A DNA stretch of 36,382 nt from a virus (IMGVR_UViG_3300037991_005016:1-36382), one strand, 5' to 3'; positions 1,324 to 36,176 are shown, numbered from the stretch's first letter. Made by a program: numbers and translations. Notes: generated by a model from the letters alone, not told the origin.

Positions 1324-1899
1324 TTAATCATCCTCGTAAAGTTCTCTTTTTTCTCGCTTTATTCTCTCACTTTTTTTCCTGTGTCTTTCTTCTACTTCTT
1401 TAACTTTTTTAACTTTAACATTATTAACATTCCAAATACAACCCGAATCTATATCCCAACTATCGGGCCAACCAAGTTTATGCCAGTTATAATGAACATT
1501 TCTAATTTCAATACCATCGTAGTCTTCTGTCACTGCGGGTTCTTCGGGTTTAGTAGGGTTTTTAACCCATCTTATTTCATTTCCCCATTCTTTTGTTTTA
1601 ACTCCGTATTTATCATCAAAGTCTTGTAGTTGTTTTTCACCATTTATTTTTAAAATTTTAACATTAGACACATCTAATTCTAAGATATAATTATATTTGT
1701 CTATCCAACCATAATCATATAAGGTTCTTGATAACCAACCCCCTGCACCTAATGTAAAAGAATACCACAACCCCGTTTGCCCCCCACTAATAGAGCGAGG
1801 CTTATTAGAAACAGGTTTTAATTCATATGTTCTTTTTTCTATTTTGTGATTCTTAGATAAAGCAAATCTTCTAACAGACTTTAGCAAATTAAACCACAT
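1324..1899 (-). CDS. W-tagged protein; conserved-looking viral domain, possibly ART-like fold
   Basis: 191 aa starting MWFNLLKS; motifs GLWYS, YDGIEI, SWDIDSGCIWN resemble a phage/NCLDV family from memory; function not established. Confidence 0.65.
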   Translation of the reverse strand: MWFNLLKSVRRFALSKNHKIEKRTYELKPVSNKPRSISGGQTGLWYSFTLGAGGWLSRTLYDYGWIDKYNYILELDVSNVKILKINGEKQLQDFDDKYGVKTKEWGNEIRWVKNPTKPEEPAVTEDYDGIEIRNVHYNWHKLGWPDSWDIDSGCIWNVNNVKVKKVKEVEERHRKKSERIKREKRELYEDD

Positions 1900-1903
1900 A
1901 ATA

Positions 1904-2566
1904 TCAATAATCCTTTATCATAGTAGTTATTCCTTTATACACCATTTCGGGGTCGGACTTAGCCGATACTATATATTTGAAACAAGGTATTCCCTTGTCA
2001 TTTAACTGCCTCATCCCATATGTAAAAGGTTCAAATATTTCATGTTTGTCTATGGGTCTTTCGCTTTTATACTTCTCTCCCCACATATCATATTTGTTAG
2101 CCCATATACCAACTGCCATAGGATAGTCTACTTCTTTTTTCTTTCTACCCGAAGGCCATCTATCAGCCACAATAGTATCTACTAAAAATTTCCACGCTAA
2201 CTGATGGTCTAAATTAGAAGGAGAATCTAAATGTCTATGGTCTATCATAAAAATAATATATCTTACTCTACGCTTTTGCATATCTTTAACCCATTCTTTC
2301 CAATAAATTGCTTCTCCTCCTAAGTCAGCACTTTTAATTGTATGAGAATCTCCATCAATTTTTACATTCTTTCTAGTTGCTCTATGTAAGCCAACTGTTC
2401 TATCATTTATTGTAGGGACTTCCCCTCTTGTTCTAAGTTGGTGGCTTAATGTTGTTTTACCAACCATTGTAGAACCATAGACTCCAAAGTTAATTGCATG
2501 GACTCTTTTGTAAAATCCTATAATTGCTTCACCTACTAATATAGCAAAGCCTGTCATTATGGACAT
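1904..2566 (-). CDS. Small GTPase, Arf/Sar1-like (Ras superfamily, TRAFAC)
   Basis: G1 GSTMVGKTT, G2 RTVG, G3 DLGG, IIFMID strand, G4 NKYD, G5 SAK; hydrophobic/amphipathic N-terminal extension. Confidence 0.85.
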   Translation of the reverse strand: MSIMTGFAILVGEAIIGFYKRVHAINFGVYGSTMVGKTTLSHQLRTRGEVPTINDRTVGLHRATRKNVKIDGDSHTIKSADLGGEAIYWKEWVKDMQKRRVRYIIFMIDHRHLDSPSNLDHQLAWKFLVDTIVADRWPSGRKKKEVDYPMAVGIWANKYDMWGEKYKSERPIDKHEIFEPFTYGMRQLNDKGIPCFKYIVSAKSDPEMVYKGITTMIKDY

Positions 2567-2785
2567 TTAATGCCCCCAAATATCTTTAGCCCTCTCTATA
2601 ATCCAACCCATTATATTAATGTCAAAGACTCCCATTATATTACCAACTAAAAAAGCGGATAGTGCTATACAAGAACCCCAAAAATACATTTTCATTTTAA
2701 TAAAAAACATATCTGCTGAATGCGCCCTACTTTGATTATACACATAGTCGGACTCACTAAAGCCCATTATGTCTCCAAAGACCAA
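2567..2785 (-). CDS. Small membrane protein (1 TM plus amphipathic helix)
   Basis: 72 aa, TTG start after GGTTGTGA; hydrophobic MYFWGSCIALSAFLVGNIMGVF. Confidence 0.7.
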   Translation of the reverse strand: MVFGDIMGFSESDYVYNQSRAHSADMFFIKMKMYFWGSCIALSAFLVGNIMGVFDINIMGWIIERAKDIWGH

Positions 2786-2796
2786 TTAATCACAAC

Positions 2797-3213
2797 CTAT
2801 TGTTGTATAGTTGCTAGGAACTCATTACTGATAGTGTTGTCTTCAAAGGTAGCGGTAGGTTCTTCCGCTACTACATTGTTTCTCCAACTATCTCTTCTAG
2901 CCGTTCCAAATTGCCTCATGCTTTCTTGAAGTTTAGCCTTGATTTGTTCTTCTCTTTGTAGTCTTTGGAAGTGGTTTTCTATCTGTCTATCCAACAATCT
3001 AATTTCTATCTTGTCATTGAGTGACAAGTCGAATAGTGCTTTCATAACCATTATTCCACCTACTGTAATAAGACCAAATAAAACAGAATGTGCTAATGCT
3101 CCATATGGGAAGTTTAATCCATATGCGGAGTAAAAATATACATTTGCTCCGCTAACTGTTCCGACAAATAAAATTGTCATAATCAATCTTGTATCTTGAC
3201 TTAGTGCTGCCAT
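2797..3213 (-). CDS. Membrane protein with 2 TM helices and a coiled coil
   Basis: 138 aa; hydrophobic LIMTILFVGTVSGANVYFY and ALAHSVLFGLITVGGIMVM followed by RLLDRQIENHFQRLQREEQIKAKLQE. Confidence 0.75.
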   Translation of the reverse strand: MAALSQDTRLIMTILFVGTVSGANVYFYSAYGLNFPYGALAHSVLFGLITVGGIMVMKALFDLSLNDKIEIRLLDRQIENHFQRLQREEQIKAKLQESMRQFGTARRDSWRNNVVAEEPTATFEDNTISNEFLATIQQ

Positions 3214-3222
3214 AATAAAACC

Positions 3223-3528
3223 TCAATTGAACTCTACTGAAATGTTAGCAGTAGAACTTCCGGCTTCTGTTATTTCTAGGAAAATGCCGTTTCTACACAA
3301 AACACCGTGCATATCATATTCTAAATTATAGTGTCCATTAGTTGCTTGATGTATTCTAGCAATTTCTGTTCCACTATTATTAGTTCCATTGAATACTTTA
3401 ACTGTTACTGCGTCTCCACCCGATATTGAAATTGCCGAATGTATGCTAATTAACTTAGCCCCTTCATTACTCACAATCGCACTTGAGCCTAAAACCCCAC
3501 TACTTCTACAACCGCCTATGCCCGTCAT
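3223..3528 (-). CDS. Small beta-rich protein, putative virion structural protein
   Basis: 101 aa, G/S/T-rich with alternating hydrophobic strands; AGGTGA RBS; downstream of the capsid gene. Confidence 0.6.
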   Translation of the reverse strand: MTGIGGCRSSGVLGSSAIVSNEGAKLISIHSAISISGGDAVTVKVFNGTNNSGTEIARIHQATNGHYNLEYDMHGVLCRNGIFLEITEAGSSTANISVEFN

Positions 3529-3580
3529 ACTATCACCTGTTCATTCAATGGAGATAGACTCCACCTATTTAATGTAGCGA

Positions 3581-4580: not shown

Positions 4581-5918
4581 TTACTGTATGTTTGTTATCT
4601 TTCCTTGACCCTTGAAGAAGGAACATCCGACTTCACCAATTGTTCGATACAAAGCCCTGTTACCTAGAGTTCCGACACCGAATGGGTTTCCATTAGCGAT
4701 ACCATCCTCAAAGTATTGTGTTGGCTTCATAACCGATAGCCACAAATGGTCTGTATCAAGGAATAGTAAATCACTTAGTTTTGTTGAAGCACTACCTGTT
4801 TGGCACATGTCCTTAACAGGAATTAGTGGAATATCATAGTATGTTGCTACTCTAAATCCAACTTCTTGTCCTTTAACTCCTCTAACACCGTTTACGGTAG
4901 GAACAACTTCTTTTCTATCCATAAATCTTTCTTGGCTTTGTAACAAGTCAGCAAGTGCTTGAATAGTATCGTAGCCTGTTAGAATAACCTTTGGAGAACC
5001 ACCGGCTAGTCTTAGGTTTCTAATCATATCATTGAGTCTTGTTAGCGTTAGTGAACGAACATCACCGGAAGCATAACCACTGCCAAAGTCTATTTCTGCA
5101 TCAAGGAAAGAGGCTGCGGTAAATCTTTCACTACCGTAAATCTTTCCTAAAGCGTTAGAAGCGGAAGTAGTATCAGTTGCGATAACTCCACCATCAATTG
5201 CTAGAAGTTCTGCTCTTGAGGTAATAACCTTGTTTAAAGAAGTATAGTTGTGTCCGATATTTGGCATAGCGGATGATTCACCATAATGCTCTAGTGGCAT
5301 AACCAACATTTTATTTTGAACTTCTGCGTGATGCTTCCCCATATCTTCTCTCATTTGCGCTCTAATGTCACCAATTCCATCATCGATTTGAGCCATTTCC
5401 ATAGCAAGTTCGCTAAAGTCAAATTGATGTGCAACGACTTTAGGACTCATGTTGAGTTGTGCATATGTTGGAGCAATTGGGCCTAGTCCGTCTTGTGCAG
5501 TAGAAAGTGCAGCGTTTTCAGGAACACCACCAATCATATCTGCTCTTGGACTATCCGAACCTAACTCTGCTAAGTTTTCTGTTCCGCTTGCATCAACAGT
5601 AAACAAATTACCGCTTCCACCGGCAGGTCTTGACTTTAGAACTCTCCATCCACTAGAAGAATATGGTCTTTTTGAAATCATTGAAAGAGCATTAACTTCT
5701 CTATTCAACATAGACCATACTTTCTGTCCGTAAACAATATTGTATAGTGCTGATACATCACTAACGGCACTACCGGAAAATGCCGGAGAACCATCGTGTC
5801 CTGTATGTATTCCACCTATTGCTCCGGCTTGCTTTAACAAAGCATTACCGGCAGGTAAATTGTTTATTCCATATGTGCTTGCTTCTAAATCTGCGATTGT
5901 ATTAATATATCCACTCAT
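4581..5918 (-). CDS. Major capsid protein (HK97 fold, halovirus/magrovirus type)
   Basis: 445 aa directly downstream of protease/scaffold; GGAGG RBS; segments YGQKVWSMLN, GGSPKVILTG, VATYYDIPLIP, LLFLDTDHL, QGKITNIQ fit archaeal tailed-virus MCPs. Confidence 0.85.
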   Translation of the reverse strand: MSGYINTIADLEASTYGINNLPAGNALLKQAGAIGGIHTGHDGSPAFSGSAVSDVSALYNIVYGQKVWSMLNREVNALSMISKRPYSSSGWRVLKSRPAGGSGNLFTVDASGTENLAELGSDSPRADMIGGVPENAALSTAQDGLGPIAPTYAQLNMSPKVVAHQFDFSELAMEMAQIDDGIGDIRAQMREDMGKHHAEVQNKMLVMPLEHYGESSAMPNIGHNYTSLNKVITSRAELLAIDGGVIATDTTSASNALGKIYGSERFTAASFLDAEIDFGSGYASGDVRSLTLTRLNDMIRNLRLAGGSPKVILTGYDTIQALADLLQSQERFMDRKEVVPTVNGVRGVKGQEVGFRVATYYDIPLIPVKDMCQTGSASTKLSDLLFLDTDHLWLSVMKPTQYFEDGIANGNPFGVGTLGNRALYRTIGEVGCSFFKGQGKITNIQ

Positions 5919-5919: not shown

Positions 5920-7173
5920 TTAAATTCCTCCTACCATTTTGTGAATGTCCGACCAATCCATGTCAGCCATCTCTTCCATACTTGGGAGTTTAATTGCGGA
6001 TTCTTCTTGTGCCTTTAGAATAGTCTCTTTTTCAGCAGTCAAAGATTTCCTTAGTTGTGTAAATTCATTCTTAAGAGAAGCAATCTCGCTTTGTGCATCA
6101 TAGTTTTGCTTGGCGATAACATTCTCTCTTGTAGAAACTTCTCTAGCGAATCTTGCTTCAAAGGACTTCTTTAGGTTGTCGTAAGCAAGTGCTTCAAGTT
6201 GTTCTTGTCGGAAAGCCTCGTAAGCCTTTTCGATGTTAGCGTTTGACAAATCAAGAGTATCAAACTCTCCATTGTTAAATGCTTTAACAACCGGCATATC
6301 GGAAGCAGTTGGCTTACCGTTATTAATAACGATACGGTCAGCAGGTTCGCCAATTTGGTTTCCTGCACCATCAAGAGTTCTTAAGTAAGCCTTTGCTTCT
6401 TCATCTTGATACTCGGCCATTTCCTCTTCATCCGCCATTTCTTCATCTTCCTTGTCCATATCCATGTCTTCTTCTTCATCCGCCATTTCATAGTTTCCTC
6501 TTTCCATGTCGTCGGTCATTTCCATGTGGTCTTTGCTATGGCCTTTTTCATCCATCTCTTCTTCTTTACGAAGCGTATTTACTTCTTCTAACAAAGTATC
6601 TAACTCTGCTAGTGCTTTTTCTAGTTTATTACTCATAGTTTTTTCACCTGTTTTATCTTGTTTCAAAATATCAAACCTCGCTTCGGGGTTAATTCCTTTT
6701 TCGCATATAGTAATTTCATGCAACTCTAACTTGCTGATTTCATTGTACTCTCCCAAGTTTTCATTACTTTTCTTTACTTTTTGGAGGGCTTGACCTCCTA
6801 TGCTAAAAGACCTTAACGACCCTTTGCGAATATTACGACCTACTTCTTTGGCCTTTTCTATATCATCTCGTAGTTTAATTACCACAAAAAAACCTACATC
6901 ATCTACTTCGGATTTCCAAAGTCTTCCTGTTTTGTCTCTATAAGAATCTACTACTTCTCCTACTTGAACATTAGAGTGATTTGTCATTACATTCCTAAAT
7001 TTAGAATCTTGCATAAATTTAGTGACTGCTTCATTAAGTGCCTTTAGTGTGATTAAGTCATTTTGCTTATCAACAATTTCAATACTAGCATATCCGCCAA
7101 TCATCAAATCATCACTGCGACTTTTAATAATGGAGAATCCATCATTTCTAGTTGCTAAGACTGCCGACGACAT
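5920..7173 (-). CDS. Prohead protease fused to scaffold protein
   Basis: N-domain IGGYAS-VDKQND, catalytic-type NH and SFSIGG, EITICEKGINPEA (HK97-type prohead protease); acidic coiled-coil C-half; start set at ATG 7173 (MSSAV) since a TATA-like box overlaps the longer ORF start. Confidence 0.88.
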   Translation of the reverse strand: MSSAVLATRNDGFSIIKSRSDDLMIGGYASIEIVDKQNDLITLKALNEAVTKFMQDSKFRNVMTNHSNVQVGEVVDSYRDKTGRLWKSEVDDVGFFVVIKLRDDIEKAKEVGRNIRKGSLRSFSIGGQALQKVKKSNENLGEYNEISKLELHEITICEKGINPEARFDILKQDKTGEKTMSNKLEKALAELDTLLEEVNTLRKEEEMDEKGHSKDHMEMTDDMERGNYEMADEEEDMDMDKEDEEMADEEEMAEYQDEEAKAYLRTLDGAGNQIGEPADRIVINNGKPTASDMPVVKAFNNGEFDTLDLSNANIEKAYEAFRQEQLEALAYDNLKKSFEARFAREVSTRENVIAKQNYDAQSEIASLKNEFTQLRKSLTAEKETILKAQEESAIKLPSMEEMADMDWSDIHKMVGGI

Positions 7174-7232: not shown

Positions 7233-9782
7233 TTAGTCTTCTTTTGGTGGTAATTTAAGACTACTAAACTTATCTTCATAAATATTCCACAATCCTTTAT
7301 CACTATCAGTATCAGCAGGTTTCTGTTCATAGCCTGTCCATGCCAACCACATTCTTTTTCCTTTAACTTCAAGCATTCTAACATGAAGTTTAGTTTCAAA
7401 TTTATTACCATCTAAGAAATATTCATGGTAGCCTTCTTTTTGAACACCTAATTTAACATCTCCACTATCAATCAGTTTACGCTTTGAAATATTCTTAGCA
7501 ACAATAGCAGGGAATTTACCTGCTTTTCCAAATAATTCAAAAATATCATCTTTAGAATCAAGTCTAATCATCCAATTAATGCTTTCATCACCTAACTTCA
7601 TTACTAAATTTAGATTATCATCTTCCCTAAGATATAATTTAAATTCTCCTGTTCTATACTTTTCCGGTGTTTTGTATTCTTTTTTTATGGTGTCTAGCAT
7701 TATTTTATCATTTTCAGCAAAGAGTTTCTTTGTTTTAGCATCAAAAGATATACCATCTCTATTCTCAAACCAATCCTTTACCCTAGTTAATTTACTATCT
7801 AATATATCTTGATAAATATCTTTATGATTCTTAACTAAAAAGTTGTGGACTTCTTTAGGAGTCTTTGCTCCTTTTTGTTTTAAGTAATTAAATATAGCAA
7901 CTGTAAGTTTAGATTGTTTTGTTTTCATTATTTCTTCCGCTTGATTTTTCCATAGGTCTAAATCTATAAGGGCATTTTTAGCCATTAGATTATCTTGCTC
8001 AAAACCATAAATAGTAAAACCATCCATGTCTCCTTTGATTATAATATTAGCCTCGCCGTGTATGTGGTCTGTAATGACTATTCCTTTTTCTACTTCTTCG
8101 ACATTATAGTTTAATGATTTATCAGTATCTTTTACTAGCATTTGTAAAGATACTAATTTGTCCGGTGTTTCGGATTCAGCAATTTCATTTATTTTTGCCG
8201 AATAAACAACAGGCTTTCCTTTAACTTCCTTTACCTTATCTATTGAAACTCTAACAATATCTCCAACATCGGCTGAAACTTGAGTATTAGTGGCATTACC
8301 AACATTAAGATAATTTTTACCTTCTATCTTTTCATCTCCTTCTTCTACCGGCCCTGCTCCTAACTTGTAAGAATAGTTAGAACCGCTTTTCTTTTTATCA
8401 AGAACAATCAAGTCTAATTCTACAAAAGGCTTCCATCTAATCCACTTTGGATTTTTCTTAGTTCCTAAGAAGTATGTTGAAGTCGCATCTTTAATCATAA
8501 CTCCTTCGGCAGTAGGCATTTCCATAATCTTCTTAGAATATTCTTCAACATCTTTTAGACTATCCGCTACTCTAGTATCTTTTTTAGATGGGAATGTTAA
8601 TGCTTCACTAGAATGAATAGAATAATTGTTAAACATTATTTGCATTCTGTTTTGTAAAGTATCTTCCATTAGGTTTTCTTCATTATGCCTCATAATATCA
8701 AAGACATGTATTCTAGGAGTTCCTTCTTTTTTACCCGCTAAATATTCTACTGCGTCTTTTCTTTTCAATGAATCTTCACCGTCAAATAAAACTAAAGAAG
8801 CATCTAGTATGCAATCTCCAAAATGTTTTTTCTTTAGTTCTTCAATCGCTTCTTTACATTTGCTAGATATATCTTTGCCTGTATAATCATAAACTTTTAT
8901 GTTTTTATCTATCTTATGGAGTTGTATTCTAAAACCATCATATTTTTCTTGAATGTAAAACTCTCCTGTAAATCCTTTGAGTTCATCCATGTCTTCTATT
9001 GTGAATATTCTATACATAGGTTTGTTGGGAATAATAAAATCGCTTTGTGCTTTTTCTTTTTCGGATTTCTTTTCTTTGAGAATAGTTTTCTTATCTTCAC
9101 CTTTATCCTCTTTGGCCTTCGCTTCATCTAATTCAGTATCTATGTCTTCTAGTTCCGCCCAATCCTGTTTAGTATTCTTAGATAAGAATATTAATTCTAG
9201 CATATTCATAGCGGCTTTTACTTTTGTTTCTACTTTCTTGGAGTCTTTACCATCACCATAATGTTCTATGATGTAAAGTGCAACATCATCAACTTCTAAA
9301 TCTAATCCTGTTAAACCGTCTGTAATATCATCGGGCTTCATATCTTTAATCGAATATGCTTCTTTTGGTAGTGCCTTATCATCTTCTCTAATAGCATAGT
9401 GAACAAACTTAATCATAAGTTCGGGTGATTCTAATAATGCTTCTAATACATTACCTTTGAATTTTTTAGCGAAAGGGTCGCTAACTTCATCGGAAGAATA
9501 TCTTAGTGCTTTGATTGCCTCATACAACTTTTCAGCATTGTTAGTGCTAACATCGGAAACATCATTTGATTCTAATAAGTCTTCATCAATATAATCCTTA
9601 AGTTCATTTGAAAGAGCATCGGTCATTTCATATGCTTCTTTGATTTTATTTACTGCGTTTCTCCATTTAGAACCGTATTCCTTTGGGTCGGTTCTTGCTG
9701 AAAGATAAGCGACTCTCGTTCTTTCAAAGAGTCTTAGAATATCTGTGGATATTGACTTATCCTTCTCAATAAGGAGAGGCAT
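7233..9782 (-). CDS. lig: ATP-dependent DNA ligase-like protein with N- and C-terminal extensions
   Basis: Motif I EKYDG-RIQLH, IIIa HVFDIM, IV EGVMIK, V KWIRWK, then OB-fold (ELDLIVL...YKLGAG); motif III is atypical (LDASL). Confidence 0.82.
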   Translation of the reverse strand: MPLLIEKDKSISTDILRLFERTRVAYLSARTDPKEYGSKWRNAVNKIKEAYEMTDALSNELKDYIDEDLLESNDVSDVSTNNAEKLYEAIKALRYSSDEVSDPFAKKFKGNVLEALLESPELMIKFVHYAIREDDKALPKEAYSIKDMKPDDITDGLTGLDLEVDDVALYIIEHYGDGKDSKKVETKVKAAMNMLELIFLSKNTKQDWAELEDIDTELDEAKAKEDKGEDKKTILKEKKSEKEKAQSDFIIPNKPMYRIFTIEDMDELKGFTGEFYIQEKYDGFRIQLHKIDKNIKVYDYTGKDISSKCKEAIEELKKKHFGDCILDASLVLFDGEDSLKRKDAVEYLAGKKEGTPRIHVFDIMRHNEENLMEDTLQNRMQIMFNNYSIHSSEALTFPSKKDTRVADSLKDVEEYSKKIMEMPTAEGVMIKDATSTYFLGTKKNPKWIRWKPFVELDLIVLDKKKSGSNYSYKLGAGPVEEGDEKIEGKNYLNVGNATNTQVSADVGDIVRVSIDKVKEVKGKPVVYSAKINEIAESETPDKLVSLQMLVKDTDKSLNYNVEEVEKGIVITDHIHGEANIIIKGDMDGFTIYGFEQDNLMAKNALIDLDLWKNQAEEIMKTKQSKLTVAIFNYLKQKGAKTPKEVHNFLVKNHKDIYQDILDSKLTRVKDWFENRDGISFDAKTKKLFAENDKIMLDTIKKEYKTPEKYRTGEFKLYLREDDNLNLVMKLGDESINWMIRLDSKDDIFELFGKAGKFPAIVAKNISKRKLIDSGDVKLGVQKEGYHEYFLDGNKFETKLHVRMLEVKGKRMWLAWTGYEQKPADTDSDKGLWNIYEDKFSSLKLPPKED

Positions 9783-9788: not shown

Positions 9789-10343
9789 TCACTCAAAATT
9801 TCTAGTGTTGTCGCCTTTAGCACCCGCTAGCGATAAATATTTACTATCTGTTCTATCAATATTGTCGGTAAATTTGCTGCCTTTTCCATATTTTGCTGCA
9901 TCTAAAAGTTTTTCATCTATTTTATCTATTTCTTCTTGTGCATTTTTAATCATTCTTTTCAAAGTATCAACATCATTTTTAGATTCTGCATCTTTTAATG
10001 CACGATTAATATTTCTTAAACTTTGCTCCACTAACATTCTAACTAACGAATCTTGATGTGTACCACCCATAGATTTTCTAGGTGGCCCTTGAAATTTTGC
10101 TTTCTTTAGACTCTCACCTGCTAAACCATACCCTTCTTTCTTTTGAGTTTGATTAGTAATCTTAGAAGCATCTTGCACCTTTGGCCTCTTAACCTTCTCA
10201 ACTTCGGGGTCTGTATCTATTTCCAATACTTGAGTTGGCTCAATGTTCTTTCTTTTCTTTGCGCTTAATTCTTCTTTAGCCTTTCTTGCTTTTTCAATAG
10301 CAAGGCTAACTATTCTTTCTTCCTTTGTTACTCTTTCCGGCAT
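9789..10343 (-). CDS. Hypothetical charged protein
   Basis: 184 aa, start coupled to upstream stop (TAATG). Confidence 0.7.
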   Translation of the reverse strand: MPERVTKEERIVSLAIEKARKAKEELSAKKRKNIEPTQVLEIDTDPEVEKVKRPKVQDASKITNQTQKKEGYGLAGESLKKAKFQGPPRKSMGGTHQDSLVRMLVEQSLRNINRALKDAESKNDVDTLKRMIKNAQEEIDKIDEKLLDAAKYGKGSKFTDNIDRTDSKYLSLAGAKGDNTRNFE

Positions 10344-10591
10344 TACTGACCACCTACATTTTCTACCATCTTATGAATATCTTTCCAGTCCATATTTCCA
10401 ACATCTTTCAATGGTGAACCACCGATAGTTCCGTGATTCATCTTAGGAGTTGGACTATCAACAACAACAAAACCGGACTTCATTAGTAAGTTATCGTCAT
10501 TGTAAACTGCTTTCTCTAAACTTTCTATCTTAGCACTAAGGGCTTTAATTATTTCAAGTAGTTCTTGATTAATTGTATTTTCTTCACTCAT
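10343..10591 (-). CDS. Small coiled-coil protein with scaffold-like C-terminus
   Basis: 82 aa; ends MDWKDIHKMVENVGGQ, matching scaffold end MDWSDIHKMVGGI. Confidence 0.78.
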   Translation of the reverse strand: MSEENTINQELLEIIKALSAKIESLEKAVYNDDNLLMKSGFVVVDSPTPKMNHGTIGGSPLKDVGNMDWKDIHKMVENVGGQ

Positions 10592-17480: not shown

Positions 17481-17481
17481 A

Positions 17482-18425: not shown

Positions 18426-18429
18426 AGTA

Positions 18430-19133: not shown

Positions 19134-19138
19134 TGTAA

Positions 19139-29713: not shown

Positions 29714-29986
29714 TCATATTTCGCCAAGTATTCTTTTTAGTTCAAAAGCAAATTTTTCATCATCTATAGAAAACTCTTTTTGTTTATCCATCCTATAGAG
29801 TTGATTTTTAATCCACGCTCTAACAAACTCATCATCAGTCATAGGCTTACTGCCCATTCTATCATAGGTGTCTTTAGCCCCTTCAAGAAACTCCACTCCA
29901 TCACCGAATCTATCATCTATTACTTTAACCAATAGTGCATATTTTTCCGAAGGGAAATCCCTTTTTACTATATCTTTCCAACTCAT
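29714..29986 (-). CDS. W-tagged hypothetical protein
   Basis: 90 aa, MSWKDIVKR. Confidence 0.75.
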   Translation of the reverse strand: MSWKDIVKRDFPSEKYALLVKVIDDRFGDGVEFLEGAKDTYDRMGSKPMTDDEFVRAWIKNQLYRMDKQKEFSIDDEKFAFELKRILGEI

Positions 29987-30330
29987 TGTAATTTCTCCAA
30001 TTTTCTAATGTAATCTTCTACCCGTTTTATAACTCCGTCAGTATTAACACCATGAGAAACCATAAACATCTCATCTACAAGTCCTTCGTGAAAATACGGC
30101 CCACTTTTATGTCCTTTAGCATCTTCTAGCAATTCTTTAGCCATTTCCATTTCAAAATCTAAAAGTCCATCAAAATCATTATATCCCAATTCTTCAAGGT
30201 CAAGCCCCCCTTGTCTTATATCATCAACTAATTCCGCATCATCGGGGTCATTAGACAGACTATAATATTCTACCATTATTTCATAAAGTTTTTCAAGTTT
30301 ATCTTCTTTTAATATATCCTTCCAACTCAT
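29983..30330 (-). CDS. W-tagged acidic protein
   Basis: 115 aa, MSWKDILKE, strongly D/E-rich; ends EKLQ like the terS candidate. Confidence 0.75.
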   Translation of the reverse strand: MSWKDILKEDKLEKLYEIMVEYYSLSNDPDDAELVDDIRQGGLDLEELGYNDFDGLLDFEMEMAKELLEDAKGHKSGPYFHEGLVDEMFMVSHGVNTDGVIKRVEDYIRKLEKLQ

Positions 30331-30342
30331 TGTAATTTCTCC

Positions 30343-30621
30343 TTAAATTCTATTTGTTCTATCCATTTGTTGTTGTCGTTGTTCGTTTAAATTTTTTGCT
30401 TTTGTTAAATTATCCATAGAAATTTTTAATAAGTCCATCATTTTTCTATTAACATCCATTGTTGATTTTAGAGGTTGTGCGGAAGGTATTGTTCCTCCTT
30501 GTCTTACTAACCTTTCAAGATTTTCATTTTCTTTTTGTAATTGACTTGCGATATTTCTTCTTAATTGAATAGATTTTTCAAAATCAAATAATTCCTGCTT
30601 AACTATATCTTCCCAACTCAT
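30343..30621 (-). CDS. W-tagged coiled-coil protein
   Basis: Start moved to ATG 30621 (MSWEDIVKQ) inside the junction repeat. Confidence 0.72.
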   Translation of the reverse strand: MSWEDIVKQELFDFEKSIQLRRNIASQLQKENENLERLVRQGGTIPSAQPLKSTMDVNRKMMDLLKISMDNLTKAKNLNEQRQQQMDRTNRI

Positions 30622-30637
30622 TGTAATTTCTCCTGCA

Positions 30638-30874
30638 TTAACGGTCTGCTCTATATTGCGGGTCAAATAACAGTTCTTCCAATGTTCTTAAAGCCTCAAA
30701 GGGTTCATTACCCGTAAGTTCATTTTTCATTATTTCATATAATTCATTTGCGGCCATTTGAAGTCTTTTACTAACTTCATCTTGTTTCTTTTTGTATTCT
30801 TTATCATAACCAACAAAAATATCCGATAGTTTATTAGGTCTTTTTCTTTTTATAATTTCTTCTTTCCAACTCAT
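30638..30874 (-). CDS. W-tagged helical protein
   Basis: 78 aa, MSWKEEIIKR. Confidence 0.72.
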   Translation of the reverse strand: MSWKEEIIKRKRPNKLSDIFVGYDKEYKKKQDEVSKRLQMAANELYEIMKNELTGNEPFEALRTLEELLFDPQYRADR

Positions 30875-30891
30875 TGTAATTTCTCCTGCAT

Positions 30892-31536
30892 CTAAAAGTA
30901 TTTCTCCAACATAAACTTTATGTGATTTATTGCTTCTTTATTATTTGCTTGTTCTTGAGTATCGGCCAATAGTTGTTTTGTTTTAGAATCATTATTCTCT
31001 AATTTTTCTATTATATCTAATGCTAAAGCCTTAACTCTATTACTAGGAACTTCTTTGAAATCTAATTTATCGTGGTCTTTTGTTCGGTAAATAGCAGAAG
31101 CAGGTAATCCTTCTTTTTTGGGTTTTCTTCTAATATCTAATCCCATTATTCCGCTATCATAATCTAAATTCACCATTTCTTTTTTTGGTAATAGTTGAAT
31201 TAATCTTGGCTTTCCTTTATCCTTAAATCGCAACTCATGGTCGGATTCATGCCACCCTAAAAAAGCATAAATGGTTGATTGATGGATATTAGGAGAAAAA
31301 TACTTGCTAACATATTCTTCTAATTCTTCATCATATTCTTGCTCTATGTTTTTTATTTCATCACCTTGAAATCCATGATATAATTTAGAGTAAGTTATAT
31401 TAGGAAATGGCCTACTATGTGGTATATTTTTTCTATTTAATTCTTCAATCAATTCTTTACCTTTAGGGCTTCTATCATATTCATATTGTTCCCCGCCTAC
31501 TCTATATGGGGATTTAAGAATAGATTGCCAACTCAT
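30892..31536 (-). CDS. W-tagged putative ADP-ribosyltransferase-fold protein
   Basis: 214 aa, MSWQSILKS; LYHG followed by YFSPNIHQSTIYA fits the H-G / YF[S/T]xxxxxAxxYA pattern of ART-like domains. Confidence 0.55.
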   Translation of the reverse strand: MSWQSILKSPYRVGGEQYEYDRSPKGKELIEELNRKNIPHSRPFPNITYSKLYHGFQGDEIKNIEQEYDEELEEYVSKYFSPNIHQSTIYAFLGWHESDHELRFKDKGKPRLIQLLPKKEMVNLDYDSGIMGLDIRRKPKKEGLPASAIYRTKDHDKLDFKEVPSNRVKALALDIIEKLENNDSKTKQLLADTQEQANNKEAINHIKFMLEKYF

Positions 31537-32189
31537 TGTAACTTCTCCTGCATTCTTTTCTTAATGTCTAGCCAAATTTGAGGATTGTTTTCAGCAAGCA
31601 CTTCTTGGACAACTTGCATCTGTGCAAATATAACTGTGTCCTGTCTCTTATGTATAAGTTTGCCCTTAAACTCCATGAGATATTTTAATGACTCTCTAAC
31701 TTCTTTCGCAAGTTTAGTTAGACTATCTATCTCTCTAGGCTCTAAATCAATATCATTAAACAAATCATTCAACTTACTATCGAGCCTTTGTATGTTAGCA
31801 CTTAGTAAATCAATCTCATTAACTTCTTTCTTTGCTATAATAACGGCTGCGGATTCTTGAACAAGTGGTGCTAAGTGATGTTTCATATGTCTTTGAATTT
31901 GCTCTTTTGTTGTTCCTAGTGCTTCGGCAATAGCCTCACTTGTAATGTCACCATTCGACAAACTTTCTTCATAGTGTTTTCTCATTGGGTCGGTGCATAA
32001 TACACACTTAGGATTACTACTATTTACATAATCTCCCATGTGGTTTCTCTGATGTTGCGCTGCCGTTCCACTTCTCCAATTATGGGTTCTATCTAAATCA
32101 TCACAACTTACTGAACCTTGTTCAAGAGCCTCTTCTAATTCCTCTCTATCTTCATGTTGGCAAAAACCACAACGCTTTCTTGTTACCAC
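31533..32189 (-). CDS. Putative terminase small subunit (tandem Zn-binding HTH repeats)
   Basis: 218 aa, GTG start; two repeats CxxC...HxxxH (CGFC...HQRNH; CVLC...HMKHH), HTH-like SEAIAEALGTTKEQIQRH, helical C-terminus; upstream of terL. Confidence 0.55.
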   Translation of the reverse strand: MVTRKRCGFCQHEDREELEEALEQGSVSCDDLDRTHNWRSGTAAQHQRNHMGDYVNSSNPKCVLCTDPMRKHYEESLSNGDITSEAIAEALGTTKEQIQRHMKHHLAPLVQESAAVIIAKKEVNEIDLLSANIQRLDSKLNDLFNDIDLEPREIDSLTKLAKEVRESLKYLMEFKGKLIHKRQDTVIFAQMQVVQEVLAENNPQIWLDIKKRMQEKLQ

Positions 32190-32198: not shown

Positions 32199-32438
32199 TC
32201 ATTCAATATATTCGGGATTATCCACTTCTAATTTTCTTGATATAATTTTTTCCATATACCTGTGTAGCATTTCTAAATGCTCTATTATTGGCTTGTCCGA
32301 CTTATCTTGTTTATTTTCAATAGCACTTATCGCCATATTCAATCTCTCGGCCATTCCTCTAATAATATCAATCATATCATCTGCATTAACTGTATTAGTT
32401 TTTTTATCTACTAGGTTTTTTAATATGCCTTTCCACAT
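32199..32438 (-). CDS. W-tagged helical protein
   Basis: Start moved to ATG 32438 (MWKGILKN), just after the upstream stop. Confidence 0.7.
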   Translation of the reverse strand: MWKGILKNLVDKKTNTVNADDMIDIIRGMAERLNMAISAIENKQDKSDKPIIEHLEMLHRYMEKIISRKLEVDNPEYIE

Positions 32439-32442
32439 TTTA

Positions 32443-33618
32443 TCAACCCCATAAATATTCATGCCAAGATTTCTTTACATTATCTTCCGTTTCTTGAGGA
32501 ACTTTTAGTCCTTTAACATTTAGATAATCTCCCCATCTTAATTTCTTTGACTTTCCTTTACCAACTACTGCAACAATCAATGAAGCCATCGCTTGCCTTT
32601 GAAAAGGCTTCAAGGTAAAGTATTTTATTTCTCCGGCGGGAACTTCTTCTAATCCCCCTATTCTAGCCAACAATTCTTTTTCTGTTGTAGCATATTTAAC
32701 TCCTTTAGTTCTACCGGATATAGTGAATCTCATGCCTTGAAAACTCGCAGCCATTTTATTTAGATTAGGTCTTCCACCCTTACTAAACAAATCCTTTCTG
32801 TTTAGCAAACTAAATACATGTTTTCTAATTGAAGTAAAGTTGCTTAGTAGTGAAGGTCGCCTAACCAAAACATCAATGTTTTCTACTCCTTTATTTAATT
32901 CAGCAATAGCAATATCAATTACATCTTTAAGCCCAATCTTTACTAAGTTTCCTCTACCAAACAATGCTTGAGCCAAAGGAGGATTTGCAGTATTCTTAGA
33001 TTTGCTATACCATGTTTCGGGTGCTTGTTTTGCATCGGGGTATTTTGTCTTAAACCATTTATTTGCATAGTGTCCATAATAAACTTCTTTGCTTTCTTCA
33101 CCACTTCCCAAGTTATTTCCTTTGTTGTCAAATTTCTTAGGAGACTTAAATGTAATATTTCTAGGATTCAGCGTACTGTTAGGTTCAGCATACTTATCTA
33201 TTTTTTTCTTGAATGCTTCCAAGTCTTCTCTATGTTCTTCTGTTAAAAAACCAACATCGGGAAAATCTTTCATAAATTGCTGAATGTCTTTTAACAAAGT
33301 AAATGTTCCTGTTCCTCCCTTATTAGGAGAATTATCTCTTCTGTAAGAACTTGTAACATGTTGTTCTAGTTGAGCATAGAGATTATCGGGGTGTGGCTTT
33401 CCACTCTTAGTATCAATTTGACCCTTCTTCTTGCCTTCTCTTTCTCTTCGTATTTTTCTGCCTTCGCTTAACAAACGCTTGCTTGAAATGCTTTGGCATT
33501 TTTTCTTCCACTTATTATATTCATCTATGAATTTATATGTGCCATTAATGGTAATGTCATTTCCTTTCAAACTAATTACTGCTTTCTTTGCTATTTTTAT
33601 CCCTCCTCTTTTTACCAT
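32443..33618 (-). CDS. Basic hypothetical protein with C-terminal W motif
   Basis: 391 aa; ends VKKSWHEYLWG; exact start uncertain (47-nt overlap with upstream gene). Confidence 0.72.
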   Translation of the reverse strand: MVKRGGIKIAKKAVISLKGNDITINGTYKFIDEYNKWKKKCQSISSKRLLSEGRKIRREREGKKKGQIDTKSGKPHPDNLYAQLEQHVTSSYRRDNSPNKGGTGTFTLLKDIQQFMKDFPDVGFLTEEHREDLEAFKKKIDKYAEPNSTLNPRNITFKSPKKFDNKGNNLGSGEESKEVYYGHYANKWFKTKYPDAKQAPETWYSKSKNTANPPLAQALFGRGNLVKIGLKDVIDIAIAELNKGVENIDVLVRRPSLLSNFTSIRKHVFSLLNRKDLFSKGGRPNLNKMAASFQGMRFTISGRTKGVKYATTEKELLARIGGLEEVPAGEIKYFTLKPFQRQAMASLIVAVVGKGKSKKLRWGDYLNVKGLKVPQETEDNVKKSWHEYLWG

Positions 33619-33988
33619 ATCTTATGTTGAATAGTTCGGGGTTAGTTCCATGACCGCCAAATGAAACTCCTCCTGCTTCTTTTTCAAAAGTATCTTTTTC
33701 AAGTAAAGACCTCTTTCTTTTTTCCCCTGCTTCGCCTAATTTAATCGCTTCTTTGGTAGAAAGTTTTACTTCTTGGTCTGTTATGTCTTTTTCTTGTCTT
33801 GATTTAGTATGATGTGGTTGAAATGGTGGCATTCTCCTATTAATTTTCCCTGTCCGATATAGTTTTTTTTCATCAACGGGAACATAATAATTATCATCAC
33901 CCTTCGACCCGTTGAATTTATACAATACACCATTTAATTCTACAAAAGGCGGTGCTTTCATATTCTTTAATATGCTTTTCCAATTCAT
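33572..33988 (-). CDS. W-tagged hypothetical protein
   Basis: 138 aa, MNWKSILKN. Confidence 0.72.
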   Translation of the reverse strand: MNWKSILKNMKAPPFVELNGVLYKFNGSKGDDNYYVPVDEKKLYRTGKINRRMPPFQPHHTKSRQEKDITDQEVKLSTKEAIKLGEAGEKRKRSLLEKDTFEKEAGGVSFGGHGTNPELFNIRYGKKRRDKNSKESSN

Positions 33989-33989
33989 A

Positions 33990-34217
33990 TCAAGCCCTCG
34001 CTAAACTTCCAAGTATTCTCTTAATGCTATCCATAGTAGTCTTATGCGCTCTATGATATTCTCCGGCTAAGTTTTTAAACTCTTCACCATCAATCATTTC
34101 TTCACCATGAAACTTTCTAACTATTTCATCTAATTCTTTTAAAATATCTCTTTGCTTGCCAAAGTTATCAATGGCATTTTGCGTAGTTTGACGCTTTAGA
34201 ATAGTTTGCCATGTCAC
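33990..34217 (-). CDS. W-tagged helical protein
   Basis: 75 aa, GTG start after GGAG, MTWQTILKR. Confidence 0.72.
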   Translation of the reverse strand: MTWQTILKRQTTQNAIDNFGKQRDILKELDEIVRKFHGEEMIDGEEFKNLAGEYHRAHKTTMDSIKRILGSLARA

Positions 34218-34228
34218 AATTAACTCTC

Positions 34229-34531
34229 CTAATCAAGTTTGTTTTCTCTTTTTACTGTTTCTTCTATAATCTCTTCCAAAGTTTCTAGTTCGTCTATCAC
34301 TCTAATGAAATTTTTCATGAAACCTATTATATGTTTGCGTTCATATTCTAGCCTCTTTTGAAAATTTTGTTCTTTGGGAGAAGGATTTTTTACTTTATCC
34401 CAAAACTCAATAGTTTCTCTAACCCTCCTTAACCTATAATCTAAAAACTTACGCAGTTCTTTAGCACTTGAAAATAATTCATCTATTTCTTTTTCCGATT
34501 TAAAATCTTTTAATATATCTCCCCAACTCAT
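34229..34531 (-). CDS. W-tagged coiled-coil protein
   Basis: 100 aa, MSWGDILKD, AGGTGA RBS. Confidence 0.75.
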   Translation of the reverse strand: MSWGDILKDFKSEKEIDELFSSAKELRKFLDYRLRRVRETIEFWDKVKNPSPKEQNFQKRLEYERKHIIGFMKNFIRVIDELETLEEIIEETVKRENKLD

Positions 34532-34635: not shown

Positions 34636-34636
34636 A

Positions 34637-34939
34637 TTATTCACCTTCAACAATTCTTTTTACATTGTTTAACATTGTATTCTTTACTATTTCATACAGT
34701 CTTTTATCTTTAATAAAAAATGGAGTAATAATTATTGTGTATTTTTTTCCTAGCCATTCCGATGAGTAATATAAATTTGCCTCTCTAAGTAATTTAATAA
34801 TTTTTATCATATCATCACTTCTCGCAAATTCATCATCAATATACGCAGTATAAACTCGCTTATTGTTAGGGTCGCCAGTGCGCTCGCCTTCTTCTATCTT
34901 AAACTCAATTTTTTGTTTAAGAATATCTTCCCATGTCAT
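34637..34939 (-). CDS. W-tagged hypothetical protein
   Basis: Start moved to ATG 34939 (MTWEDILKQ); the GTG in the ORF track is part of the AGGTGA RBS. Confidence 0.72.
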   Translation of the reverse strand: MTWEDILKQKIEFKIEEGERTGDPNNKRVYTAYIDDEFARSDDMIKIIKLLREANLYYSSEWLGKKYTIIITPFFIKDKRLYEIVKNTMLNNVKRIVEGE

Positions 34940-34948
34940 ATTATTCAC

Positions 34949-35191
34949 CTATTCATATAATTCATATAATGCTTCTATATCAGTAAACTTCTCTAATAGG
35001 TTAATAGCGGCTTTTGCTAAAGGTCTAGCATCTACATATTCCGTATGTTTCCCATGTCTATTTACAACCATTTTTCCTTCTTTCTCCTCGCTCATAATAT
35101 AAATTATACCATCAACATAATGTTTAACTTTATTTAGAACAGTGATGGGTTTTTCAGGTATGTTCTTTTTAATCTCATCTTTCCATGTCAT
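34949..35191 (-). CDS. W-tagged hypothetical protein
   Basis: Start moved to ATG 35191 (MTWKDEIKK). Confidence 0.72.
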   Translation of the reverse strand: MTWKDEIKKNIPEKPITVLNKVKHYVDGIIYIMSEEKEGKMVVNRHGKHTEYVDARPLAKAAINLLEKFTDIEALYELYE

Positions 35192-35200
35192 ATTATTCAC

Positions 35201-35587
35201 CTAAATTTTAAAATCCTTTTCTCCAAATATTTTACTAATCATCTTACTCAAAGTAATACGGCTAGCACCCGCAGTAGCCCATTCTTCTCCATCTCTTGAG
35301 GCTTGGAGTAAAGTATATCTCAAAATATATTCTCTTTCATCCATACCTTTCAAATATTTGTCTTCTGTTCCATCCTCTTTCATTTCATGTAAATTTGCTT
35401 GAGCATCTTCATAATATTTCATAGCCTTACCATCGGTCATTCTATACAATATCTTTAAAAATATCTCCAATAATTCATCTTGGTCGTATTCATTAATTAA
35501 GAAATAAAGAGAAGACCGGCCTCTCCTGTCAAAAGGCCCTCTAATTCCTCTTTTAGTTTTTTTAGCAATTATATCTTCCCATGTCAT
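35201..35587 (-). CDS. W-tagged hypothetical protein
   Basis: Start moved to ATG 35587 (MTWEDIIAKK). Confidence 0.72.
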   Translation of the reverse strand: MTWEDIIAKKTKRGIRGPFDRRGRSSLYFLINEYDQDELLEIFLKILYRMTDGKAMKYYEDAQANLHEMKEDGTEDKYLKGMDEREYILRYTLLQASRDGEEWATAGASRITLSKMISKIFGEKDFKI

Positions 35588-35612
35588 ATTATTCACCTTT
35601 TATTTTAAACGA

Positions 35613-35930
35613 CTTTTTCAAAAATTTTTCTAGGAATTTTTTTCTTTCTTTCTTTTAGCCTCTTGTTCTAAATCATATGCCCCACTTGACATATAGGCTT
35701 CTCTCATACCATCGGGTGTATTTGCTCTATCTCTTGCTATCCTTTCATCCATAGCCTTAAATCGAGCCTTATCGTCTTTAGCCCTTTCCTCATATTCTCT
35801 TTTTTCTCGGTCAAATACAAGTTTTTGATACTCCTTTTCTTGTTCGGGAGTCATATACTTTACTTTGTCTTTTTTAACAATATCTTTCCAATTCATTTAA
35901 TCATCTCCTTTTTCAAAAATTTTTCTAGGA
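35613..35930. repeat. 23-bp direct repeat CTTTTTCAAAAATTTTTCTAGGA flanking one gene
   Basis: Identical copies at 35613-35635 and 35908-35930; partial copy TTTTTCAAAAA near 36191-36201. Confidence 0.85.
35630..35896 (-). CDS. W-tagged charged protein
   Basis: 88 aa, MNWKDIVKK, GGAGATGA RBS. Confidence 0.72.
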   Translation of the reverse strand: MNWKDIVKKDKVKYMTPEQEKEYQKLVFDREKREYEERAKDDKARFKAMDERIARDRANTPDGMREAYMSSGAYDLEQEAKRKKEKNS

Positions 35931-36176
35931 TTTGTCATAGCCTTGCCTCGCCTCTTTTATGAAGGCTAATCCATTTTCCATATTCCTAGAAACAGACTTC
36001 TTTATGTAGTCTATTTCCTTAAGAAGAGTATCTTTATCTGCTTCTTGTTTAATCTCATCTTCAAGCCTCATCACTTGTGTGGATAATCTACCCATGTCAA
36101 ATTTAAAGAACTCTAATATTTTGAAATACCTTTGGTCGGATATTTTTTCTTTTTTAATCGTATTTTCCCAATTCAT
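35925..36176 (-). CDS. W-tagged helical protein
   Basis: 83 aa, MNWENTIKK. Confidence 0.72.
   Translation of the reverse strand: MNWENTIKKEKISDQRYFKILEFFKFDMGRLSTQVMRLEDEIKQEADKDTLLKEIDYIKKSVSRNMENGLAFIKEARQGYDKS

Follow-up and report, generated by a model that had tools for sequence, protein, structure and literature searches.

Short peptides that carry proteins into a capsid or capsid-like shell have been described in several systems. In phage T4, the capsid targeting sequence (CTS) is a two-part signal in which residues 4 and 7 serve targeting and residues 8 and 10 serve processing, as given in the cited portion of PMC9026906. Family 1 encapsulins load unrelated cargo by a terminal peptide of ~10 residues, usually C-terminal and sometimes N-terminal, which binds the inside of an HK97-fold shell (PMC8229669). 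The C-terminal region of the P22 scaffold binds coat and can bring cargo fused to it inside the shell (PMC9962691), and the N-terminal signal of P1 DarB is enough for a foreign protein to be loaded into the head (PMC9024508). Protease gp245 of SPN3US cuts after A-X-E in nine substrates, which mostly bear long unrelated propeptides and, in the portion of the source cited, no common short tag (PMC10052503). Magrovirus groups A and B have genomes of about 90-100 kb with an opposite-strand replication arm, and their host according to the literature is Marine Group II (Poseidoniales) (PMC5434244).

The stretch analyzed here (the window, 36,382 nucleotides) comprised the head operon of a magrovirus only. 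In the capsid search, 8 of 11 matched phage records were HCTV/HVTV, at 25% identity; the nearest named capsid relatives were haloarchaeal HCTV-1 and HVTV-1, and the protease was 32% identical to that of HCTV-1. A capsid and protease closest to haloviruses, together with an ATP-dependent ligase (PF01068, 7233-9782) and a homing-type endonuclease (phrog_5046 match, 20008-21363) inside the structural module, are features of groups A and B (PMC5434244). Relatives of 91-96 kb with 68-93% capsid identity carried their replication arm on the opposite strand; replication gene names were assigned by us from the sequences, without a library scan. A search with the viral chaperonin found no cellular relative. 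The capsid protein model had a pLDDT of 79, and its best Foldseek matches were the Mic1, SU10, and HK97 capsids. The core features were as follows.

4581-5918, minus: major capsid protein, predicted HK97 fold (sequence matches, structure model)
5832-5840, minus: Leu-Leu-Lys29 of the capsid protein, likely propeptide cleavage site; invariant in 28 sequences and all 79 rows of a second alignment
5920-7173, minus: S78 prohead protease (residues 23-172) with a likely scaffold fused to it; 6636 may be an internal start
5938-5961, minus: scaffold C-terminal motif M-D-W-S-D-I-H-K, moderately tag-like; W-x-x-[IV]-H tail in 99 of 100 rows
6661-6669, minus: Ile-Leu-Lys171 at the protease-scaffold junction (R-F-D-I-L-K), likely self-cleavage site
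7123-7131, minus: Ile-Ile-Lys17 ahead of the protease domain, likely self-cleavage site
10343-10591, minus: 82-aa conserved protein, likely small scaffold, ending M-D-W-K-D-I-H-K (10370-10393)
15584-17227, minus: portal protein
21375-22805, minus: terminase large subunit
31533-32189, minus: likely small terminase, conserved anchor gene (our label; no family match names it)

The first-pass annotation had listed 24 peptides of a common form, and each was found to open a gene on the minus strand between 1324 and 36176. Of 53 gene intervals, 24 had a W-x-x-[IVL]-[LIV]-K start. Internal positions of these proteins matched the pattern at a rate of 3 in 10,468, which predicts 0.06 such starts, a lower-side figure because the pattern was fitted to the present window; two of the 53 intervals had imprecise ends, and neither was scored as tagged. 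ATG opened 22 of the 24 tagged ORFs. The ORF at 33990-34217, previously read as MTWQTILK, opens with GTG, and in the KWWNILK frame (19139-19423) the Trp has no adjoining ATG, the first start codon being a GTG seven codons upstream. Copies of the motif also lay inside window proteins (W codons at 17784, 24393, and 17306) and at the C-terminus of 32443-33618.

1324-1899, minus: tagged ORF, 191 aa, WFNLLK; weak lead to an ADP-ribosyltransferase-like fold, which further checks did not confirm
17265-17480, minus: 71-aa ORF, near-C-terminal copy WRSVLR
17482-18027, minus: two-part ORF, internal copy WFDIVK at 17784 (M-Q-K before), directly preceding a phrog_7595 domain, which in relative G001 has the tag at its N-terminus
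18024-18425, minus: tagged ORF, 133 aa, WHIILK, Cys-rich; bacterial phage relatives untagged
18430-18786, minus: tagged ORF, 118 aa, WKDILK
18783-19133, minus: tagged ORF, 116 aa, WQNILK, basic
19139-19423, minus: tagged ORF, 94 aa from GTG, WWNILK, basic
19404-19610, minus: tagged ORF, 68 aa, WEEVLK, phrog_17747, basic; no tag in the pelagiphage and roseophage records
19617-19871, minus: tagged ORF, 84 aa, WKSILK
22802-23113, minus: tagged ORF, 103 aa, WFDEVK
23117-23761, minus: tagged ORF, 214 aa, WFDILK
23771-24079, minus: tagged ORF, 102 aa, WFDIIK; in G009 fused behind another domain via an internal copy
24079-24906, minus: GNAT-like acetyltransferase (below cut-off), internal copy WWGVVK at 24393; relatives terminate at the copy
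29714-29986, minus: tagged ORF, 90 aa, WKDIVK
29964-31554, unstranded: 41-nt leader (ribosome-binding site, start, and tag), five copies heading the array's five ORFs
29983-30330, minus: tagged ORF, 115 aa, WKDILK, acidic
30343-30621, minus: tagged ORF, 92 aa, WEDIVK
30638-30874, minus: tagged ORF, 78 aa, WKEEIIK
30892-31536, minus: tagged ORF, 214 aa, WQSILK
32199-32438, minus: tagged ORF, 79 aa, WKGILK
32443-33618, minus: 391-aa protein, C-terminal copy V-K-K-S-W-H-E-Y-L from 32478
33572-33988, minus: tagged ORF, 138 aa, WKSILK
33990-34217, minus: tagged ORF, 75 aa, GTG start, WQTILK
34229-34531, minus: tagged ORF, 100 aa, WGDILK
34637-34939, minus: tagged ORF, 100 aa, WEDILK
34949-35191, minus: tagged ORF, 80 aa, WKDEIK
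35201-35587, minus: tagged ORF, 128 aa, WEDIIAK
35630-35896, minus: tagged ORF, 88 aa, WKDIVK
35925-36176, minus: tagged ORF, 83 aa, WENTIK

The proteins attached to these peptides were dissimilar past the Lys, as the annotation had stated: all-against-all BLASTP of the 24 window cargoes gave no pair below E 0.08 and a single weak pair at E about 0.09. When 166 tagged ORFs from 9 genomes were grouped, 117 cargo families were obtained, 88 of them singletons, with no within-genome cargo pair at E 1e-4; a wider set contained 991 distinct N-tagged proteins in 354 families at 241 loci. Cargo turnover is rapid. Three window cargoes, and a fourth by eye, had untagged homologues in the four bacterial phage records compared (CRP-1, HTVC104P, HMO-2011, and DSL-LC01). 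A membrane-like stretch was predicted in 1 of the 991 tagged cargoes versus 14 of 144 untagged head-arm ORFs, indicating that the cargo is soluble. Effector functions are mostly putative, since only 6 of 100 cargo representatives matched Pfam, one of these matches being likely spurious.

That the tag lies among the head genes is trivially true in the window, which holds the head operon alone; the location was examined in eight near-complete relatives. There 144 of 366 head-arm ORFs had the tag, compared with 0 of 106 in the tail arm, 1 of 497 among early ORFs, and 1 of 151 among the others, counts that are not independent, as the genomes are related and the head-arm boundary was drawn after the tags had been seen. 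Confinement to the head arm held in all eight, and the tail arm, although equally late, was tag-free. This comparison of head-module with early genes, which had been set in advance as a refuting check, favored the annotation. Each genome had 11-24 tagged genes, and the tag was missing from the portal, terminase, and capsid proteins. No description of the tag was found in the literature searched.

The proposal that constraint acts on the peptide and not on the DNA alone was upheld by the codons of the 166 tagged ORFs, which were about as diverse in the tag as in the cargo. Codon entropies, in bits for tag versus cargo, were 1.29 and 1.29 at Ile+3, 2.33 and 2.01 at Leu+4, and 0.80 and 0.82 at Lys+5; they were lower in the tag at Asp+2 (0.55 versus 0.74) and Ile+4 (1.02 versus 1.29). 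The DNA was also repeated within arrays, as the 41-nt leader in five copies (83-100%), 27 nt in three copies, and 18-21 nt in three to four copies.

A purely N-terminal tag, as implied earlier, did not hold, the pattern being matched also at 69 C-terminal and 186 internal positions, some by chance. For the orientation test, Lys was omitted from the search pattern. N-terminal copies then had Lys at +5 in 924 of 991 cases and C-terminal copies in 21 of 69 (330 of 354 and 8.5 of 17 when counted by family). C-terminal copies instead had a hydrophobic-x-Lys just upstream, on the cargo side, in 47 of 69 cases (9.2 of 17 families; background 10.9%); the class is small, includes some chance matches, and retains the Lys in about half of its 17 families. 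In the 391-aa family, aligned in 33 rows with identities down to 21%, the upstream Lys383 was the sole hydrophobic-x-Lys site present in 80% or more of the rows. The predicted Lys site therefore moves with tag orientation, and because C-terminal copies keep W-x-x-I-L, mostly lose the Lys, and gain a separate upstream site, the Trp part appears to act apart from the cut. C-terminal copies could have originated by read-through into an old tagged start.

Similar sites were concentrated in the assembly proteins. Hydrophobic-x-Lys-[ASGQ] occurred at about 32 per 1000 residues in the scaffold, protease, and 82-aa protein, compared with 0.5-9 in 15 other core proteins and 15 and 20 in two further head-arm proteins. 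Among 96 distant capsid proteins, 86 had hydrophobic-x-Lys within the propeptide segment, versus 27.9 by shuffling, with P2 and P1' variable. A small residue (A, S, G, Q) followed only about 31% of the 924 tag Lys and about 70% (72/104) of the scaffold hydrophobic-x-Lys sites. Pro followed none of the 924 (0/771 deduplicated), versus 3.8% after other Lys, and a helix rather than the protease could be the cause. Together, the sequence patterns point to a Lys-specific head protease. The gp21-type protease that had been invoked was not found; the window protease is of the HK97/S78 type (PF04586), fused to the scaffold. The capsid-targeting reading of the annotation is thus partly supported, by head-arm confinement, peptide constraint, the Lys-site patterns, and the untagged occurrence of some cargo domains in bacterial phages, and is corrected on its N-terminal-only placement and its protease type.

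We consider that the shared peptide is probably a two-part removable loading label, a docking helix joined to a protease site that frees the cargo. The tag would fold as a short amphipathic helix, with Trp, Ile+3, and Leu+4 all facing the same way, and its W-x-x-I-L would dock the protein inside the assembling head by binding either the capsid precursor on its inner face or the core of scaffold, perhaps at the site used by the scaffold tails (W-x-D-I-H). Cleavage after Lys by the S78 protease would remove the capsid propeptide at Lys29, break down the scaffold, and detach the tags, and the cut after hydrophobic-x-Lys on the cargo side would leave freed cargo in the capsid. The cargo would stay with the DNA; its basic members would serve as filler that binds DNA, and some others would be effectors brought into the next host. 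New cargo may be recruited by insertion of a gene downstream of a leader and tag already in place, or by fusion to a gene that has the tag. That the tag is a copy of the scaffold tail is only moderately supported, because the +4 residue differs (His or Asn in the tails versus Leu, Ile, or Val in tags) and the tails score low on the tag profile (2.6 bits for the fused scaffold and 9.1 bits for the 82-aa protein, the weakest 5% of tags defining a threshold of 12.9 bits). More tentatively, and with somewhat less than even confidence, we propose that magroviruses possess an orientation-free, self-removing loading code, evolved from scaffold tail plus protease site, by which 10-25 interchangeable proteins, out of hundreds of available families, are packed into every virion. 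Among them would be DNA-binding proteins that bacterial phages also have, and enzymes (acetyltransferase, phosphatase, possibly ADP-ribosyltransferase) that would enter marine archaea along with the DNA.

Other readings explain parts of these data. The tag might be solely an extended head-protease substrate, in which case tagged proteins would bind the protease and be cleaved in or close to the prohead, without having to stay in the virion (timed activation, decoys, or disposable scaffold-like filler). Within the protease-scaffold, the best tag-like stretch is indeed R-F-D-I-L-K at the junction of the two parts (4.9 bits), the relatives displayed have F-x-I-[IL]-K ahead of the protease domain, and many cargoes are short, charged, and without family. 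We nevertheless regard this as unlikely, given the C-terminal copies that retain W-x-x-I-L and bear their cut site elsewhere and given cargoes poor in protease-type sites (2.3 versus about 32 per 1000 residues in scaffold), which were not built for digestion. Docking on a non-capsid hub, either a membrane assembly site formed by the operon's GTPase-like and membrane proteins or a host complex, with the proteins acting late in the infected cell, would suit the GTPase-like gene (PF01926, below cut-off) and hydrophobic ORFs at 1904-3213, flanked by tagged genes, and an amphipathic N-terminal helix could bind membranes. Such a hub leaves unexplained both the scaffold- and propeptide-type Lys site on the cargo side of the tag and the related Trp motif at both scaffold tails, and it seems quite improbable.

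The repeat could instead be a cassette leader at the DNA level, made up of ribosome-binding site, start, and first codons, that recombination has spread; the peptide itself would then be functionless. Leaders repeated within arrays fit this, as do homology breakpoints against relatives, 15 of 23 of which lay within 30 nt of a tag (13% expected), although breakpoints are gene boundaries too. However, synonymous positions vary as in cargo while the residues are kept, leaders differ from array to array, the motif is retained inside proteins and at C-termini, and late tail genes lack it. As the sole cause the cassette is largely refuted, and we give it very little credence; it is probably how the tag spreads. 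Equally hard to sustain is a signal for N-terminal stability, acetylation, or translation of late proteins: Ser or Thr directly precedes Trp in 52% of copies and the operon has GNAT-like genes, but 106 tail ORFs and the portal, terminase, and capsid genes do without the tag, which also occurs at C-termini and domain junctions.

Compared with the described systems, the proposed removable loading label resembles the CTS of T4 IPI-III, likewise a short peptide at the terminus of proteins that are unrelated, change quickly, and are often small and basic; the CTS has targeting residues three apart, processing at P3 and P1, and removal by the prohead protease, according to the cited portions of the sources (PMC9026906, PMC9958956, PMC3012670). 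T4 targeting is proven, whereas targeting and the two-part pattern are deduced here from sequence, for an archaeal virus with an S78/HK97-type protease, a putative Lys site, copies at N-termini, C-termini, and junctions, and 11-24 tagged genes per genome instead of three internal proteins. Encapsulins share the HK97 fold predicted for the shell here; they are cellular compartments for which the cited portion of the source describes no protease removal (PMC8229669), in contrast to a virus head with portal, terminase, and protease. As with the P22 scaffold tail, both scaffold-like proteins end in a conserved tag-like Trp motif, but P22 binding is electrostatic (Arg293 and Lys296 to Asp14) and its cargo fusions are engineered (PMC9962691), while the motif here is hydrophobic, natural, and present on hundreds of families. 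The Dar proteins of P1 have no consensus in the account cited (PMC9024508), and here one consensus occurs on 24 genes. SPN3US, with many internal head proteins and a P3-x-P1 protease motif (PMC10052503), offers a further likeness. By analogy, the tag would work like the T4 CTS in its design, with no sequence kinship claimed, and belongs to another family.

All 53 intervals taken as genes in the window lie on the minus strand and include the following.

4581-5918, minus strand: major capsid protein
5920-7173, minus strand: S78 prohead protease with a long acidic C-terminal extension
7233-9782, minus strand: ATP-dependent ligase
15584-17227, minus strand: portal
20008-21363, minus strand: endonuclease-like gene
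21375-22805, minus strand: terminase large subunit

The closest named capsid proteins were those of the haloarchaeal viruses HCTV-1 and HVTV-1 (25% identity, 8 of 11 records), and records of 78-96 kb hold relatives with 68-99% capsid identity. A capsid model built from 135 sequences (pLDDT 79; 61 in an earlier model from a shallower alignment) matched HK97-fold capsids; no solved relative of the protease or the capsid protein was found by sequence. In the excerpted text of PMC5434244, the structural module of magrovirus groups A and B contains a ligase and a homing endonuclease. Because of these capsid relatives, the 78-96 kb records, the HK97-fold model, the ligase and endonuclease within the structural module, and the gene content, the window was treated as a magrovirus head operon, with the host assignment coming from the literature. 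A search for a host link through the viral chaperonin found no cellular relative. The window was covered by contigs from four DNA runs, and no RNA run was listed as containing it; the contig joints had short sides and were left unused. Just after the capsid genes, the late operon holds at 1904-3213 (minus strand) a conserved GTPase-like gene (PF01926, below cut-off), which keeps its place in relatives, and two hydrophobic ORFs, possibly forming a membrane-linked assembly or exit module.

Gene starts were scored for W-x-x-[IVLTE]-[LIV]-K or a one-residue variant, and 24 of the 53 intervals matched, compared with 0.06 expected, a figure on the low side because the pattern was fitted to the window. 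The first-pass annotation had proposed that one peptide opens at least 24 ORFs, that the proteins share no similarity beyond its Lys, and that the constraint acts on the peptide. All of this was borne out: the 24 cargoes (the protein parts beyond the tag) were unrelated to one another, and in 166 tagged ORFs from nine genomes the codons for Ile+3, Leu+4 and Lys+5, counted from the Trp, were as diverse as those of the cargo. Leader DNA is repeated within arrays; what is conserved is the peptide. A role of the tag as a recombination point was set aside, being confounded with gene boundaries. One tagged frame (19139-19423, minus strand) has no ATG beside the Trp in the window or in about 13 relatives, overlaps the end of an upstream basic gene, and uses GTG or a non-standard codon as its start. 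More distant relatives (L203:4770-5327 and L202:503-767, both fetched loci) show a looser arrangement, with the Trp motif as far as about 25 residues into short ORFs.

The proposed concentration among packaging and head genes was also found in eight near-complete relatives, each with 11-22 tags. In the head arm, 144 of 366 ORFs carried the tag; the count was 0 of 106 in the neck and tail, 1 of 497 among early genes and 1 of 151 elsewhere. These counts come from genomes that are related to one another, with ORFs called by a simple script and an upstream head-arm edge chosen after the tags had been seen; the PolB, MCM, RNR, TerS and tape measure labels were assigned from the sequences in the present analysis. 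Both outliers, one early and one other, are atypical. The tail arm, also late, is without the tag, which is therefore no general late signal. No such tag was present among the 11 HCTV-1 and 6 vir335 head proteins whose ends were inspected. The tag-coding DNA pattern, which does not count host N-termini, matched 100 stretches across 185,579 prokaryote genomes; none of the 80 titles listed names Poseidoniales. The tag is real and conserved, and is probably a functional signal.

When 241 oriented loci including the window (3,324 distinct ORFs, from loci with overlaps and contigs in common) were searched with W-x-x-[ILV]-[ILV], which does not require the Lys, 991 N-terminal, 69 C-terminal, 186 internal and 50 ambiguous copies were obtained, every row being kept in the first three classes. 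Lys directly followed the motif in 924 of 991 N-terminal copies, compared with 21 of 69 C-terminal ones, the remainder of which had Arg, Trp or a stop instead. Just upstream of the C-terminal copies, hydrophobic-x-Lys was found in 47 of 69 (9.2 of 17 families), compared with 10.9% at sampled positions. In the family of the 391-aa protein (32443-33618; 33 rows, down to 21% identity), this upstream Lys is the sole hydrophobic-x-Lys site kept in at least 80%. The Lys site therefore separates the Trp part from the cargo whichever way the tag is oriented, which fits a release site. The C-terminal class is small, about half of its 17 families retain Lys+5, and some of its copies could be read-through into an old tagged start. 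Internal copies often lie at domain junctions, and the same domains occur elsewhere as separate tagged genes.

The HK97 protease cuts after Lys, although our literature search found no statement to that effect. Per 1000 residues, hydrophobic-x-Lys-[ASGQ] occurred about 32 times in the scaffold (the C-terminal part of the protease gene), the protease domain and the 82-aa protein (10343-10591, likely a small scaffold), 15-20 times in two other head-arm proteins, 0.5-9 times in 15 other core proteins and 2.3 times in cargo. Leu-Leu-Lys29 is invariant across 28 capsid proteins within an otherwise variable part, and distant capsid proteins (25-44% identity) have hydrophobic-x-Lys in the matching segment in 86 of 96 scorable rows (of 97), compared with 27.9 by shuffling, with P2 free and P1' varied. 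By eye, the HCTV-1 capsid N-terminus and scaffold contain several such sites. Pro was absent directly after the tag Lys (0 of 924, compared with 3.8%) yet common one and two places further on, an absence that a helix would explain equally. These patterns suggest that the prohead protease likely cuts after Lys. An in-frame ATG at 6636 (minus strand), with GGTGA upstream, closely follows the protease domain and is a likely internal start that would give free scaffold. Among 94 rows of the late ligase (7233-9782, minus strand), 99% retain hydrophobic-x-Lys at residue 7; this protein may undergo processing and packaging.

In 99 of 100 rows the scaffold has the C-terminal sequence [ML]-[DENS]-W-x-[DE]-[IV]-H, a tail shared by the 82-aa protein; as to whether tag and scaffold co-vary, five more distant relatives keep this tail, with His or Asn, and the tag too. 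Against a profile built from 830 tags, the tails scored 2.6 bits (main scaffold) and 9.1 bits (82-aa protein) and the protease junction (R-F-D-I-L-K, between protease and scaffold) 4.9 bits, compared with 12.9 for the weakest 5% of tags. Among 86,231 early positions, 3 reached at least 8 bits. Tails and tags differ consistently at +4. By these scores, the likeness appears real for the 82-aa protein and weak for the main scaffold. According to the excerpts consulted, the scaffold tail of P22 binds coat and can bring in cargo (PMC9962691), and the T4 capsid-targeting signal binds the core (PMC9026906); by analogy, the tag could dock on either. Overall, we consider it rather likely from these sequence patterns that W-x-x-I-L would dock the protein in the assembling head and that the protease would cut after hydrophobic-x-Lys, leaving freed cargo in the capsid.

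The 166 tagged ORFs (median 106 aa; 34 strongly basic, 28 acidic) fell into 117 families, 88 of them singletons, and four recurring families were present in 5-7 of nine genomes; cargo turnover is fast. Pfam matched 6 of 100 cargo representatives (a PAP2 phosphatase, a GNAT acetyltransferase, three DUFs and one likely spurious coiled coil) and gave no match for the other 94. PADLOC matched 0 of 26 window proteins, the 391-aa protein had no ESM Atlas match, and almost all N-tagged proteins lack a membrane-like stretch (present in 1 of 991). Homologues of three recurring cargoes were found in bacterial phages (17, 43 and 7 records). In the four records inspected (CRP-1, HTVC104P, HMO-2011 and DSL-LC01) these were all untagged, so that among the records compared only magroviruses carry the tag on these cargoes; the DSL-LC01 homologue adjoins genes annotated as capsid maturation protease. 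A search for evidence that the untagged homologues are virion proteins found none.

Proteins of 1356, 870 and 724 aa (10944-15014, 24911-27523 and 27525-29699; minus strand) lie among the head genes, evolve fast and match no family; they are candidate ejection proteins, and the counterpart of the 724-aa ORF bears an N-terminal tag in four relatives (G001, G003, G006 and G007). Between terminase and portal, a cluster of small basic genes (17265-19610, minus strand) has untagged counterparts in pelagiphages, roseophages and HMO-2011, and possibly encodes core proteins that bind DNA and are common to marine viruses from two domains of life. Inside the basic tagged gene 18783-19133, the segment 19017-19069 matches many unrelated contigs from four marine runs; the domain is therefore widespread in other marine genomes.

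For the 191-aa tagged ORF 1324-1899 (minus strand), the nearest named ESM Atlas clusters were AcrIF11-like ADP-ribosyltransferase (0.90) and ART-PolyVal (0.87). Only three other homologues were found, with YDGIE and WDxDSGCIW conserved in the four sequences, and PDB, Pfam and phage searches gave no confirmation; an ADP-ribosyltransferase-like identity is a weak lead. T4 packages an ADP-ribosyltransferase, Alt, as described in the excerpted text of PMC9026906.

As the first-pass annotation had supposed, no description of the tag was found in searches of the available literature. It is not mentioned in PMC10768690 or in the excerpts of PMC11706807, PMC10160649 and PMC5434244, and those of PMC4819975 and PMC12991175 added nothing. 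If our reading is right, a six-residue pattern marks the packaged proteins of abundant, uncultured ocean archaeal viruses, amounting in the fetched loci to 991 distinct proteins in 354 families, nearly all unnamed, and these would be the first place to seek counter-defence and host-takeover proteins of Marine Group II archaea. The tag would also be a minimal loading tag with built-in release, testable in a laboratory host, and a T4-like cargo code would have arisen in an HK97-type head that uses another protease, on a several-fold larger scale and in either orientation. The proposed analogy with the T4 capsid targeting sequence stood in part: the tag would work similarly, with a comparable division between targeting and processing residues, but the two are not of the same family, since the magrovirus protease is of a different type and the tag is not restricted to N-termini. 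In occurring at either protein end, it resembles encapsulin loading peptides.
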